Assembly (NCBI GenBank): GCA_963713865.1
Contig: OY970208.1
Coordinates: 1,472,001 to 1,536,000, forward strand
Origin: an uncultured candidate division Zixibacteria bacterium
GTDB taxonomy: Bacteria; Zixibacteria; MSB-5A5; RBG-16-43-9
DNA length: 64,000 nucleotides
Direction of reading: 5' to 3'
Positions 27,584-31,455 of this stretch are shown piece by piece. Below the pieces are notes generated by a model. The model ran no database searches, had not been told where the DNA came from, and saw nothing but the letters and a program-made list of their open reading frames with translations. The position numbers and the translations under genes were made by a program. Numbering within the stretch: position 1 is the stretch's first letter; every line of letters begins with the position of its first letter.

Positions 27584-27754
27584 AAAAGGTTCAAAGGCTC
27601 AAAAGTTTAATCGTTAAAACATTAAAATACAATGATAGATGACAAATTAAAGATAAAAAATATTGCAACGAAAAACTATTCCGTTATAATAAGATTGAGA
27701 TTGCAGGGATAGAACATTGTTCTGTTCAATTTATTTTGTAAATAAGGAAACATA

Positions 27755-28222: not shown

Positions 28223-28224
28223 AT

Positions 28225-28250
28225 GTAGGGACAGAACATTGTTCTGTCCT
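28225..28250. repeat. GTAG REP; related copies at 27703 and 31408
   Basis: GTAGGGACAGAACATTGTTCTGTCCT; relatives GCAGGGATAGAACATTGTTCTGTTC and GTAATGACAGAACAATGTTCTGTCCTAC. Confidence 0.75.
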
Positions 28251-28379
28251 TATGAATTTTATATAGGTATAATTAATAGGATGCTTTATGGACTGAGTAG
28301 AAGCATACAGTAATCAGGGGTGGGGTTGTGCCCTGTATGCTGTCTACTACCTACTGTCTACTAACCTAAAGGAGGTAAA

Positions 28380-28937
28380 ATGTTAATCGCCTTATTATTT
28401 CTGCTAATCGTCTTCGGAGTACCGATTTTGATTATAATCGGAATCTATAACCGGTTGGTGGTTTTGAGGAATCGGGGGGATAATGCCTGGCATCAGATTG
28501 ATGTGCAGTTAGAGAGAAGGGCAGATTTAGTACCCAATTTAGTTGAGACCGTTAGAGGGTATGCAGCTCATGAGAAAGGTGTTTTTGAAGCGGTAACAAA
28601 AGCCCGAACCCAATGGGCTCAAGCCGGAAGTGTTAAGGAGAAAGCAGAAGCGAATGAAATGCTTACTTCCGCCCTGAAGACCCTTTTCGCAGTAGCAGAG
28701 AATTATCCGGATTTAAAAGCAAATCAGAATTTTCTGATGCTTCAGGAGGAGTTAGCTGGGATCGAAAGCAAGATTGCTTATGCCAGGCAGTTTTACAATG
28801 ATACAATCTTAGCCTATAACAACGCCCAGCAGGTTTTCCCCTCAAATATCATTGCGAATATGTTCAACTTCAAACTCAGAGAGTATTTCGAGGTGGAAGA
28901 GGCTGGCAAAAGAGCAGTGCCGAAAGTGGGGTTCTGA
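28380..28937 (+). CDS. lemA: LemA family protein
   Basis: [26 protein letters not shown] and [15 protein letters not shown]. Confidence 0.96.
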
Positions 28938-29007
28938 GAAACAGGCTAAAGGCGGAAAACTGGTAGGTCAGACATTCCTGTCTGACAGTAAATAAAAGAG
29001 GCTGTAG

Positions 29008-29778
29008 ATGAAAATCCCAAAAGCCAAAACAATTGAACTAATTGATGAGAAAATAAAACAGTTTGAGCAGGTGGCAAGAAATGCAACATACGAAAACCAA
29101 TATAAAGAAGAGTATCAGTTGGCTTATCATGGGACTGAAATGCTCCTAACTGAATTATTTTCTGAAGATGAAACAAAGAATTTCAGGATTGAAGTGACTA
29201 TCCCACTTTCAATTCGGGCAGGTGAAGAAATTGATTTTACTGAGGAAGTTCGGGGATATAAAGAACATATTAGTAAGTGCATTACACAACTAAAAGCATA
29301 CAGAGAAAGGATTGATAATTTTTGGTCAGACGAGGAAGAAACAACTACAAGAACATCTATGATGCCTTTTGTTGCAATGAGTTTTGATGAAGCCGATAAA
29401 GAAATTAATCAGCATGTGACCGGAATTCTACAGGCATTGCAAGTTGATTTTGAAACAGGGGAGCGTTATTCCAAGGACAGTATCCCAGAGAAAGTACAGA
29501 GTCGAATTCGTAGTGCTGACCTCTTCATAGGTATCTTTGTTAAGCGGGACAAATTAGAAAGTGGTGGTTATTCAACACCAGGCTGGTTACTCAAAGAACT
29601 TGGTATTGCGCAAGGAGCTAAAAAAGATGTTATTGCCTGGGTCGAGCAAGGCATAAAGGATATCGCCGGATTGAACTGGGAGAAAGAGGTTATTTACTTT
29701 GTGCGGGAGGATGTAAAAGAAATGGAGAAGGCTACGATAAAGTTTCTGGAAGCACTCAAGGTGCATAAACTGATTTGA
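29008..29778 (+). CDS. TIR-like / nucleoside 2-deoxyribosyltransferase-like domain protein with N-terminal helical domain
   Basis: C-terminal PFVAMSF...IPEKVQSRIRSADLFIGIF...WLLKELGIAQGAKKDVI matches the TIR/NDT pattern with a conserved Glu. Confidence 0.7.
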   Translation: MKIPKAKTIELIDEKIKQFEQVARNATYENQYKEEYQLAYHGTEMLLTELFSEDETKNFRIEVTIPLSIRAGEEIDFTEEVRGYKEHISKCITQLKAYRERIDNFWSDEEETTTRTSMMPFVAMSFDEADKEINQHVTGILQALQVDFETGERYSKDSIPEKVQSRIRSADLFIGIFVKRDKLESGGYSTPGWLLKELGIAQGAKKDVIAWVEQGIKDIAGLNWEKEVIYFVREDVKEMEKATIKFLEALKVHKLI

Positions 29779-29785
29779 ACGTGAT

Positions 29786-30337
29786 ATGTCTGACAGTAAG
29801 AATCAAAGAACAGACAGAACAGACAAGAATGTCTGTTCTACCAATGATCTCAACGATGGGCTTCAAATCACCAGAAGGAAACTTCCACACTGGACATTGA
29901 AAGGCTCAACCTATTTTGTTACTTTTAGAACGGCTAAAAGACAGGCAGGAATGCCTATCCTCCTATCCATTGAAGAACAGAAACTGGTTTTGGAACATGT
30001 AATTAATCATAATGAGAGGTTTTATATGCTAATTGCCGCTGTTGTAATGCCTGATCATGTTCATTTATTACTGGCACCAGAAGAAAAATATAGACTAAGT
30101 AGAATAATGAAAGGGATTAAAGGTGTCACCGCTCGACATATTAACTTAAAAAGAGGAACTTCTGATTCTATCTGGTTTGAAGAATCCTTCGATAGAATTA
30201 TAAGAGATCAGAAAGAATTGAACGAGAAATTGAATTATATGTTGAATAATCCAATTAAGAAAAATTTAGTTGATGACCTCTGGCAATATCATGGTTGGTA
30301 TTTCAAAGAGAGATATGGCAGATATAATGTTAAATAA
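29786..30337 (+). CDS. REP-associated tyrosine transposase (RAYT, Y1 HUH)
   Basis: RRKLPHW...TYFVTFRT, VVMPDHVHLL (HUH), IWFEESFDRIIRD and NYMLNNP (catalytic Tyr). Confidence 0.92.
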   Translation: MSDSKNQRTDRTDKNVCSTNDLNDGLQITRRKLPHWTLKGSTYFVTFRTAKRQAGMPILLSIEEQKLVLEHVINHNERFYMLIAAVVMPDHVHLLLAPEEKYRLSRIMKGIKGVTARHINLKRGTSDSIWFEESFDRIIRDQKELNEKLNYMLNNPIKKNLVDDLWQYHGWYFKERYGRYNVK

Positions 30338-30443
30338 AAACAGACAGGAATGTTTGTTCTACCGGAAATAAAATGGTAGGTCAGACATTCTTGTCTGACT
30401 ATAATCACCGAACAGACAGGAATGTCTGTTCTACCGATTGTTT

Positions 30444-31340
30444 ATGATCTACGAGCAAATAGCAGAAAACAAAAGAAAAAGTATTTTTCTCCTTTTCTTA
30501 TTCATAGTCTTTCTCCTTTTCTTGGGGTGGGTTTTTGGTGAAGCTTATCAATCAGGTGAAGCCGGACTTATTATCGCTCTGGTAGTTGCTATTGTAATCT
30601 CTTTTGTTACCTTTTTCTATGGCGATAAAATGGTTTTAGGGATAAGTCAGGCAAAGCCGGTTGATCCCAAAGAAAATCCTTATCTTTATAATGTTATCGA
30701 AGGACTGGCTATTGGGGCTGGTGTTCCTGCACCTAAGGCTTATATTATCGACGACACTGCCCCGAACGCTTTTGCTACTGGAAGAAATCCACAGAATTCA
30801 GCCATTGTTGTTACAACTGGTCTTTTGCAGAAGATGGATCGGCTGGAACTGGAAGGTGTAATTGCTCACGAGATGTCGCATATAAAAAATTTCGATATCC
30901 GCTATGCTACCCTAGTAGTGGTCTTGGTTGGAACTGTGGCTTTGCTTTCTGACTGGATGGGCAGGAGTTTTTTCTACGGAAGGGGGAGAAGAGATAGAAG
31001 AGGTGGCGGGAATGCGATTTTTATCCTTTTAGCTTTGATCCTGGTGATTTTAGCTCCGGTGATTGCCAAATTGATTCAGCTCGCCATTTCCAGACAGAGG
31101 GAGTATTTAGCAGATTCCTCAGGAGCACTCCTTACCCGTTATCCAGAAGGGCTGGCTTCGGCTTTAGAGAAAATCTCAAAAGATACCGAACCATTAGAGG
31201 TGGCGAATAAGGCAACTGCCCATCTTTATATCGTTAATCCCTTGCTTGATCACCGGGGTAAGTTGAATGATCTTTTTTCGACTCATCCTCCGACAGAGGA
31301 AAGGATTAAGCGACTAAGGGCGATGACGTTTGTCAAATAA
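30444..31340 (+). CDS. htpX: M48 zinc metalloprotease HtpX
   Basis: PNAFATGRNP, AHEMSH, SRQREYLAD and FSTHPP. Confidence 0.95.
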   Translation: MIYEQIAENKRKSIFLLFLFIVFLLFLGWVFGEAYQSGEAGLIIALVVAIVISFVTFFYGDKMVLGISQAKPVDPKENPYLYNVIEGLAIGAGVPAPKAYIIDDTAPNAFATGRNPQNSAIVVTTGLLQKMDRLELEGVIAHEMSHIKNFDIRYATLVVVLVGTVALLSDWMGRSFFYGRGRRDRRGGGNAIFILLALILVILAPVIAKLIQLAISRQREYLADSSGALLTRYPEGLASALEKISKDTEPLEVANKATAHLYIVNPLLDHRGKLNDLFSTHPPTEERIKRLRAMTFVK

Positions 31341-31455
31341 CAGATGAAAGATGACAGATAAAAAAATAAACGCGTAGCCGAGCCTTCAAGACTCAGCCGT
31401 AGAGATTGTAATGACAGAACAATGTTCTGTCCTACAAATAGAAATAGAGGACAAA

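Follow-up and report, generated by a model that had tools for sequence, protein, structure and literature searches.

The closest described counterparts of the locus reported here are REPtrons, or REPIN-RAYT systems (Ton-Hoang 2012, Bertels & Rainey 2011, Quentin 2018, Corneloup 2021), built around a Y1 HUH enzyme, the repetitive extragenic palindromic (REP)-associated tyrosine transposase (RAYT, also TnpAREP). We analysed a stretch of 64,000 nt (the window) from an uncultured candidate division Zixibacteria bacterium (lineage MSB-5A5; RBG-16-43-9; assembly GCA_963713865.1, contig OY970208.1, forward-strand positions 1,472,001 to 1,536,000), in which the spacer between the core genes lemA and htpX holds a REPtron, a term used here for a RAYT plus the GTAG-tagged REP hairpins cognate to it, together with a gene of 256 aa at 29008..29778, in the following called the cargo. 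The locus shares with described REPtrons a Y1 HUH enzyme that scores above the NCBIfam RAYT cutoff, GTAG-tagged hairpins that form inverted doublets around the gene and are dispersed in the genome, and REPs read in frame inside the gene. It differs in a protein-coding passenger within the RAYT's own 5' doublet, in about ten RAYT-like paralogues in the genome, and in RAYT alleles whose relationships depart from those of the host flanks; vertical inheritance is the usual description for RAYTs (as stated in part of PMC3390384). A full-text literature search, mostly at abstract level, turned up no description of a protein-coding passenger inside a RAYT's REPIN (a pair of inverted REPs forming one long hairpin). 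We read the locus, with a probability of roughly 0.6, as an old TIR/NDT-like accessory gene, probably of defence type, residing in a REPtron that acts as a REP-driven recombination hotspot between core genes.

The nearest precedent is provided by prochlorosin genes beside TnpAREP in picocyanobacteria, where, in the relevant part of the preprint, the neighbours are phylogenetically unlinked and the authors suggest high recombination of both (bioRxiv 10.1101/2020.03.09.984088). In both cases a highly diverse gene stands beside a TnpAREP gene with an unlinked history; the gene concerned here encodes a predicted TIR-like enzyme instead of lanthipeptide precursors, and occurs as one copy at one locus, not as an expanded family.

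Defence hotspots between conserved core genes are known from E. coli and Pseudomonas. The lemA-htpX locus resembles them in that the accessory content between two syntenic housekeeping genes is variable, being present or absent, with alleles replaced through homology in the flanks, and differs from them as a tiny island of 1.4 kb that is structured by REPs and carries the REPs' own transposase.

In the following, G000 denotes the source genome of the window (a single contig of 2.72 Mb, which is the genome searched), G001 to G016 its relatives, L-numbers metagenome or contig loci and X-numbers sequencing runs. The cargo and the RAYT are the only open reading frames (ORFs) between lemA and htpX, and no integrase domain was found between these genes. 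An initial annotation of the window had described lemA and htpX as common neighbours; they are adjacent across the order, and profiles confirm LemA, the RAYT and an M48 HtpX-type peptidase. The GC content is 38% for the cargo and 35% for the RAYT, compared to 44% for lemA and 43% for htpX. The features are, in window coordinates:

28380..28937, plus strand: lemA, the conserved left flank (Pfam LemA, E 6.9e-62; 97-99% identical in same-genus loci)
28963..28986, plus strand: REP-A (GTAGGTCAGACATTCCTGTCTGAC), a GTAG-tagged hairpin with an 8-bp stem and a TTCC loop, from sequence reading and folding; an A1/A2 chimera, A1 and A2 being two upstream REP-As found in relatives
28979..28991, plus strand: first copy of a 13-bp repeat, composed of the REP-A 3' arm (TGTCTGAC) and AGTAA from the cargo leader; the same leader type is found in L040 and, with one mismatch, in L043
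28987..29007, plus strand: cargo leader with an AAGAGG motif resembling a ribosome-binding site, from sequence reading
29008..29778, plus strand: cargo gene (ORF), 256 aa, modelled as a helical N-domain (~5-105) and an alpha/beta C-domain (~120-252) of TIR/NDT-like fold
29787..29799, plus strand: second copy of the 13-bp repeat, an orphan REP-A 3' arm that together with A29786 makes the ATG TCT GAC start of the RAYT
29818..29841, minus strand: REP-b, whose GTAG head is on the minus strand; read in frame as part of the RAYT leader (peptide DKNVCST)
29786..30337, plus strand: RAYT (TnpAREP) ORF, 183 aa, conserved core from ~29870, with the presumed HUH motif PDHVHLL and Tyr motif LNYMLNNP
29940..29963, minus strand: decayed REP-B-like copy, inserted in frame inside the RAYT and absent from G001 (RTAKRQAGMPILLSIEEQK in G000 versus RTAQGELTIEEQK in G001)
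30339..30362, minus strand: REP-B2, directly 3' of the RAYT stop
30376..30434, no strand: intact REP doublet (REPIN), consisting of A3 at 30376-30399 (plus), an 11-nt spacer and B3 at 30411-30434 (minus)
30438..31340, plus strand: htpX-type M48 peptidase, the conserved right flank (Pfam Peptidase_M48, E 1.1e-36; 94-97% identical in same-genus loci)

Direct reading of the sequence bears out all positions annotated previously for the REPs, repeats, ORF and doublet. The same REP-A had been claimed for both sites; a REP-A is indeed present at each, but the loop is TTCC at 28963-28986 and TTCT downstream.

The content of the spacer varies among relatives. Within the family of the source organism (nine genomes including G000), the spacer is found in all four possible states, holding cargo and RAYT together, either gene by itself, or no more than a REP doublet. 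The same-genus genome G001 reads doublet, REP-A, cargo, REP-b, RAYT, REP-B, doublet; G006 has the cargo without a RAYT, G008 the RAYT without a cargo, and G003, G004 and G005 show lemA, one REP doublet and htpX. A contig break affects G002, in which a different ORF adjoins htpX, and no htpX match at E 1e-80 was found in G007 (90% complete). Outside the family, G013 has a lemA-htpX spacer of 24 bp, while that of G009 spans 201 bp and contains no copy of this REP. The cargo is found in 3 of the 40 relatives searched, one of these being a weak partial match. Six of the 50 metagenome loci with a cargo relative have a Y1_Tnp gene directly 3' of it (L028, L038, L042, L043, L046, L065). The next gene after the cargo is htpX itself in L058, with one REP-B in between, and the RAYT position is taken by a 492-aa ORF with a C-terminal membrane segment in L047, L040 and L037; the slot adjoining the cargo can carry other genes without REP ends. 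The 492-aa ORF (L047:1303-2778, protein P0121; also L040 and L037) has no Pfam hit and a hydrophobic C-terminal segment, and occurs with flanks of both genus types; downstream of the cargo, L040 and L047 are 100% identical. A search for this ORF in the 40 relatives gave a single weak match in G011 (E 5e-8) and none in G002.

An empty allele is also found in a close relative of the source organism. A contig of 1095 nt from run X1 covers 28474-28986 (15 differences) and 30510-30979 (11 differences) with about 106 nt in between, its flanks being ~97% identical to the window, and the joint 28987->30410 is present in X1 and X5. None of the sequencing runs holds more than 0.21 of the sampled words, and same-strain raw reads are thus absent. 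Excision of the cargo by itself was not seen among the contigs with long flanks, and the X1/X2 coverage gap at 29028-29755 was given no weight. The many REP-A/REP-b joints that skip ~820-835 nt were discarded, as their sides of just 21-30 nt mark them as generic doublets from other places or organisms. An assembly artefact was likewise rejected: the arrangement is common to independent assemblies, and run X4 holds two cargo pieces at 0 differences. Variable occupancy of the junction, as anticipated in the initial annotation, is therefore observed in the form of empty, RAYT-only and cargo-only states as well as strongly divergent cargo alleles.

The history of the cargo alleles is at odds with that of their surroundings. 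Genomes that agree at 95-99% in the flanks share 59-85% identity in the cargo. At the DNA level, G000 and G001 share ~90% identity in the flanks versus ~72% in the block from REP-A to the RAYT stop. L043 and G000 proteins are 97% (LemA), 95% (HtpX) and 94% (RAYT) identical, the cargo 69%; likewise, LemA is 99% and the cargo 72% identical between G006 and L028. The cargo of G001, from the genus of G000, is 81% identical to that of L038, which has the flanks of another genus. Synonymous divergence (dS) between G000 and L043 is lowest in the RAYT (0.09), intermediate in the flanks (0.35-0.70) and highest in the cargo (1.2); between G001 and L038 it is 0.62 for the cargo versus 1.93 for HtpX. The ratio of nonsynonymous to synonymous divergence (dN/dS) of the cargo is 0.06-0.19, which therefore points to a constrained protein, not a hypermutated one. 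One breakpoint of the G000/L043 swap is close to the cargo start; the other, near 29720, falls inside the gene, ~58 nt short of its stop. Other allele pairs switch between >93% and ~60% identity within the cargo, at codons ~64-92 and at the domain boundary. Intragenic mosaics are seen at codons ~64-92 and ~120-160 (window 29197-29283 and 29365-29487); crossovers at the domain boundary reassort N- and C-domains between alleles, and a hypervariable patch falls in a low-confidence loop between helices.

In a tree of 52 full-length homologues (quick search, unrooted), the 12 cargo alleles of this context form one clade with a support of 98 in the Shimodaira-Hasegawa-like approximate likelihood ratio test (SH-aLRT). 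An allele was assigned to this context if REPs, lemA, htpX or a RAYT adjoined it (for L027, REPs alone); partial matches were excluded throughout, as were L046, L068 and L075, the three rows that contain internal stops. The L046 allele (L046:410-1183) has one internal stop at codon 238 and represents either a pseudogene or a contig error. Because the 12 alleles form one clade, a single origin of the cargo at the locus, followed by exchange of old alleles between lineages, appears to be the simplest reading of the sequences.

Each of the mapped rearrangements has one end or both at a REP. The 5' flank and GTAG head of the G000 REP-A match A1 of L043, its loop and 3' flank match A2, and the chimera is therefore explained by an A1 x A2 deletion of 68 bp. 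In G006, REP-b joins directly to the sequence that follows B3 in G008 (b x B3, RAYT removed). The X1 contig joins the REP-A end to REP-B3, equivalent to A x A3. G008 lacks the segment from the A2 foot to a few bases past REP-b. In the L047 type, homology stops at the CTAC end of a decayed REP-b, where the block of the 492-aa ORF begins; its right side is without a REP. The deletions end in same-orientation REPs, and the REPs are recombination substrates; REPs have also been discussed as sites of homologous recombination (in part of PMC3390384).

We propose that the lemA-htpX spacer of this bacterial family holds a REPtron which the accessory gene would have entered once, with an intact REP-A on one side of it and what is left of the RAYT's 5' doublet (REP-A 3' arm, spacer, REP-b) on the other. 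Recombination between same-orientation REPs would have removed modules, namely by A1 x A2 in G000, b x B3 in G006 and A x A3 in the close relative, and homologous recombination between lineages would have shuffled old cargo and RAYT alleles independently, with crossovers in conserved stretches, including some inside the cargo. The 8-bp REP arm at the start of the RAYT may have been retained because it provides the RAYT start codon.

The hairpins themselves are well defined. When folded as single-stranded DNA, the single REPs give -7.5 and -9.5 kcal/mol and the doublet -17 kcal/mol (z -5.3); none of 200 shuffles folds as well, for each REP and for the doublet alike. The doublet at 30376-30434, with inverted REPs, a short spacer and one long hairpin, is a REPIN; the pair 28963/29818, at a distance of 831 bp, falls outside that definition as it stands. 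The genome contains 45 REP-A and 39 REP-B matches (up to 6 mismatches; overlapping sets), with tail-to-tail doublets elsewhere, and no other gene-sized split doublet of the same REP family is among the matches of the 2.72-Mb genome. Two direct REP-A-like composite repeats, 2.1 kb apart and sharing a longer 3' extension, were seen outside the window at G000:C1:1267859-1269983. All 12 loci with sequence on the upstream side show REP-A2 and a purine-rich leader of 21-34 nt before the cargo; in L058, just the 3' arm of this REP has survived. The extra REP-A, immediately 5' of the cargo, comes after a complete A1-B1 doublet in G001, G006 and the majority of metagenome loci.

The initial annotation had further noted an exact 13-bp direct repeat (TGTCTGACAGTAA) bracketing the cargo and read it as the boundary of a cassette. 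The repeat is exact at 28979-28991 and 29787-29799, the orphan-arm sequence at the second copy being ATGTCTGACAGTAAG, yet as a boundary it is not conserved beyond the REP arm in relatives. Eight of the 13 bases are constrained REP arm. The window has 11 exact direct repeats of at least 13 nt at distances of 20-1000 nt, whereas 100 sequences simulated from a first-order Markov model average 1.9 and reach at most 7, and seven of the 11 are unrelated to REPs; the length of 13 nt alone is therefore unremarkable. Only G000 has the full 13/13 match; L043 matches at 12/13, and the remaining loci read show 8-9 bp or an imperfect match, so that the repeat does not represent a conserved duplication. The sequence ATGTCTGAC is found 7 nt past the cargo stop in G000, G001, G006, L028, L043 and L046, with variants at this position in L038 (ATGTCTGAT), L042 (ATGTCTTGC) and L065 (ATGTCTGGG). 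From these comparisons the repeat reads as an 8-bp REP arm plus five bases common only to this leader type, not as a conserved target-site duplication. A target-site duplication by a DDE transposase was considered and dismissed: visual inspection of the 795-bp insert showed no terminal inverted repeats, nor does the insert encode its own transposase. The second 13-mer starts one base after the sole in-frame ATG of the RAYT (29786), a point missed in the initial annotation, and REP-b therefore lies in frame within the RAYT leader.

The RAYT is assigned by its profile matches to the Y1 HUH RAYT family (NCBIfam NF047646 REP_Tyr_transpos, 93.9 bits versus a cutoff of 80; Pfam Y1_Tnp, 39.5 bits versus a cutoff of 23, E 7e-10). 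We take PDHVHLL and LNYMLNNP to be its catalytic HUH and tyrosine motifs. GTAG-tagged REPs flank the RAYT region at 28963, 29818, 30339, 30376 and 30411 and are also dispersed genome-wide. Two REP copies are read through in frame within the RAYT ORF (29818-29841 and 29940-29963), both upstream of the HUH motif. In-frame REPs within tnpAREP genes are reported, in the relevant part of the source, as unique to TnpAREP subclass 2.4 (Quentin 2018, PMC6006769), and in this one criterion, judged by sequence, the present RAYT agrees with that subclass. There are 10 RAYT-like matches in the genome, the closest paralogue being 45% identical, and no cargo homologue is found among the surveyed ORFs beside the other nine. 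Since only 7 nt separate the cargo stop from the RAYT ATG, we propose that both genes are probably co-transcribed and translationally coupled.

The cargo protein itself belongs to no annotated family. It matches no Pfam family at cutoff and no NCBIfam family; sub-cutoff Pfam hits to Toast-rack_PspC-Cterm (E 0.0017) and NAPRTase_N (E 0.029) were deemed spurious. The Pfam models TIR, TIR_2, CAP12-PCTIR_TIR, PF10137 and NDT do not reach their cutoffs with the cargo, and a profile search of PDB sequences gave noise only (best E 0.26). Among 22 family members, sub-threshold matches are to TIR in one (E 0.058), DUF4062 in four (best E 0.026) and Nuc_deoxyrib_tr in one (E 0.13); the distant homologue in L025 reaches 24.2 bits for TIR_2, versus a cutoff of 28. 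The AlphaFold model (predicted local distance difference test score 86.7) shows a helical N-domain and an alpha/beta C-domain. Foldseek matches the latter to the TIR domains of SARM1/TIR-1, SPARTA TIR-APAZ, the cytidine monophosphate (CMP) N-glycosidases BcmB/MilB, and NDT, with E-values of 9e-5 to 3e-3; against the PDB, SARM1/TIR-1 and SPARTA TIR match with probability 1.00 and a template modelling (TM) score (target) of up to 0.60, as single domains. NDT-fold N-glycosidases score equal to TIR, so that the fold does not discriminate between the two families; the cargo model also matches viral models of NDT and of TIR. In the ESM Atlas the cargo lies near CAP12/Pycsar TIR clusters (score 0.91), with 24 of 30 matches in that family set. 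The earlier suggestion of a TIR/NDT-like cargo is thus borne out by the AlphaFold model, Foldseek and the ESM Atlas, and the C-domain is predicted to have a TIR/NDT-like (flavodoxin-like) fold. W193, L194, E197, E213, E225 and E227 are invariant in the 22 cargo-family sequences, and the arrangement W193-L194-x-x-E197 (W-x-x-x-E) may be similar to the region around the catalytic Glu of TIR NADases. The cargo thus shares the predicted C-domain fold with TIR NADase effectors (Thoeris ThsB, CBASS Cap12 / Pycsar PycTIR, SPARTA TIR-APAZ) and NDT-fold N-glycosidases (BcmB/MilB), as well as the proximity to CAP12-PCTIR_TIR in the Atlas, and differs from them in the missing Pfam match at cutoff, an N-domain that matches no known sensor, and the absence of a conserved partner gene.

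Cargo relatives are patchily distributed across bacterial and archaeal phyla. A word-based search gave 174 relatives, the best 120 of them at 53-77% identity, from sources including Exilispira, Thermoplasmatales, WOR-3, Aminicenantes, ANME-1, Bacillota and Caldisericum. Homologues are often found in neighbourhoods of defence type, with restriction, toxin-antitoxin, integrase or further TIR/SIR2/STAND genes; the genes near them include GmrSD, AlwI restriction-modification, HNH, integrases, a type I S subunit, SIR2_2, NERD, HicAB, DUF4062-STAND and AbiV. From the modelled fold and these neighbours, the cargo may be a defence or addiction effector of the nucleotide- or NAD-glycosidase type. A distant homologue (32% identical; L025:1890-5379) lies between a 565-aa M48-domain protein and an AbiV-type HEPN protein, echoing the M48 neighbour in the window. 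Homologues carrying the same REP ends, as a mobile cassette would suggest, did not turn up: none of the 42 full-length homologues outside the lineage has hairpins on both flanks, and no Y1 transposase was found beside outside-lineage homologues (13 genome loci, 29 ORFs; 150 of 161 metagenome-locus ORFs scanned). In the archaeal loci L017, L019 and L021 the cargo homologue lies directly upstream of purL. L021 carries a 159-aa 5' fragment of purL, a 151-aa ORF, the cargo and then the full purL, an order that would fit a small insertion with duplication of the purL 5' end. Just upstream of lemA, the window has purD and purE; the link to the archaeal purL neighbours may be coincidence.

Several observations weigh against the reading of an old defence-type gene in a recombining REPtron. 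With respect to defence, the case consists of the modelled fold and the neighbouring genes; PADLOC-DB 2.0 returns no family for the cargo (nor for the RAYT) at E up to 1, no cargo relative was found in viral contigs (106 pattern matches, none confirmed) or in plasmids (tblastn), the cross-phyla identity of 55-77% is unusually high for a defence gene, and the three archaeal homologues adjoining purL make a role in nucleotide metabolism possible instead. With respect to recombination, the empty, island-less allele of the close relative is known from one contig at depth 3, and the RAYT-only state of G008 matches no identifiable REP x REP crossover. Repeats of 24 nt are short for RecA-dependent recombination. 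Each of the six structural differences mapped touches a REP foot with one end or both. Cleavage at CT/CA dinucleotides beside REPs has been published for other TnpAREP enzymes in vitro (as described in part of PMC8266576), and with the ends at REP feet this makes RAYT catalysis as compatible with the data as host recombination. The REP-to-REP joins could have been made by host recombination or slippage between 24-nt direct repeats, or by the RAYT, whose catalysis in the rearrangements of the locus is possible. Finally, compared to G016, the cargo interrupts the leader REP-A precisely where loop and 3' arm meet, and a copy of the arm is present on either side; plain recombination does not predict this position, and the geometry fits a capture model well.

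The comparison with G016 involves a RAYT orthologue from another family (65% identical, REP head GTGG) that lies without a cargo inside an 851-aa ORF and whose leader contains an intact REP-A, an 11-nt spacer and REP-b copies. The block corresponds to L080 (G016:C49), at ~1372-2070 in RAYT orientation, with tandem REP-b half-copies and a trailing doublet; it is flanked by two direct REP-A copies, both translated VGQTFLSD, in an ORF that by its sequence may encode a restriction-modification enzyme. Possible readings are a REPtron mobilised as one block and a gene that accommodates an in-frame insertion of 700 nt.

The initial annotation had interpreted the arrangement as capture of a single-gene cassette, in which the RAYT cuts at the REP-A foot and moves an 808-nt unit between two TGTCTGAC(A) sites in an integron-like manner. 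The observation is confirmed and the interpretation partly supported: the fold, the position in the leader doublet and the variable occupancy agree with it, while the unconserved repeat, the single clade, the breakpoints inside the gene and the homologues without hairpins on both flanks do not. "Split doublet" is a fair description of the cargo site, since the A-b doublet that the cargo interrupts is intact in the G016 orthologue, which has no cargo. The claim that deleting one repeat plus the gene restores a doublet agrees with G016, but G008, without a cargo, lacks both REP-b and the orphan arm. Capture is also favoured by the arm TGTCTGAC followed by CA on both sides, CA/CT being published cleavage dinucleotides (in the cited part of PMC8266576), by the independent occurrence of cargo and RAYT, and by cargo alleles that differ sharply amid near-identical RAYT and flanks. 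Against this, the second site has neither hairpin nor GTAG guide, and REP-b is inverted, an orientation (iREP) that the enzymes tested in the part of PMC8266576 considered neither bind nor cut. The genome holds no further gene-sized split doublet of this REP family, and the joints that seemed to skip about 830 nt are generic doublets. The likeness to integron cassettes extends to a promoterless-looking gene, hairpin-forming repeat bounds, a fixed chromosomal platform and strain-variable content, but there is no tyrosine-recombinase integrase, attC or attI, the slot holds one cargo family, and exchanges fall inside the gene. On balance we consider such capture quite improbable. Somewhat wider is the view of the RAYT's 5' REPIN as a docking site for a defence-type gene, with RAYT cutting and joining at REP feet, instead of host recombination, driving gains, losses and swaps, and REPtrons in general as small HUH-driven cassette platforms; it is compatible with the breakpoints at REP edges, the placement of the cargo within the leader doublet and the set of four occupancy states, and we regard it as speculative and rather unlikely.

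Cargo and RAYT could also constitute an IS200/IS605-like unit between the same-strand REP-As at 28963 and 30376, inserted once into the lemA-htpX doublet, the cargo being a passenger like tnpB in IS605. As in IS200/IS605 elements (tnpA + tnpB), there is a Y1 HUH enzyme, with subterminal same-strand hairpins at both ends and a second ORF inside; the divergent block spans REP-A to the RAYT end, direct REP-A copies flank it, the empty allele is the exact absence of the A-to-A3 segment, and the G016 orthologue with its REPs lies between two direct REP-As inside the 851-aa ORF. The second gene is, however, TIR-like and not TnpB, the pair has one copy in the genome and occurs, where flanks are visible, only at lemA-htpX (the six of 50 metagenome loci plus G001), the cargo and RAYT alleles have different histories, and REPtrons are reported, in part of PMC6006769, not to transpose as a unit. 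This alternative appears unlikely to us. A mutually dependent two-gene system of TIR-like effector and HUH nuclease would account for the 7-nt spacing and conserved ATG in nine loci and for the adjacency of the genes in G000, G001 and six metagenome loci; it conflicts with the cargo-only loci G006 and L058, the RAYT-only G008, the membrane-anchored 492-aa ORF that replaces the RAYT in L047, L040 and L037, and the lack of a Y1 transposase among the scanned neighbours outside the lineage, and is very improbable. The reading of an old accessory gene in a REPtron that recombines between core genes is therefore preferred.

A second REP family is present in the vicinity. The purE-lemA gap (28223-28379) is ~157 nt long in the window and contains a REP of the GTAGGGACAGAACATTGTTCTGTCC type, with further copies of this family near 27701-27735 and 31411-31436. 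In relatives the gap holds a 120-aa gene of the 23S-rRNA-intervening-sequence / bAvd-like four-helix type (compared in L002, L003, L010, L028, L037 and L043).

The host benefit of RAYTs and REPINs is an open question, for which this locus offers a compact natural series of four states between the same core genes. If host recombination explains all of the variation, the locus is an ordinary small variable island and cautions against reading REP-bracketed genes as captured cassettes. The cargo defines an unclassified two-domain TIR/NDT-like family and is a candidate single-gene defence or addiction module. The rearrangements at REP feet supply defined substrates for asking whether a RAYT rearranges more than REPs; a RAYT-driven cassette platform, if true, would give RAYTs a function at the level of the host.

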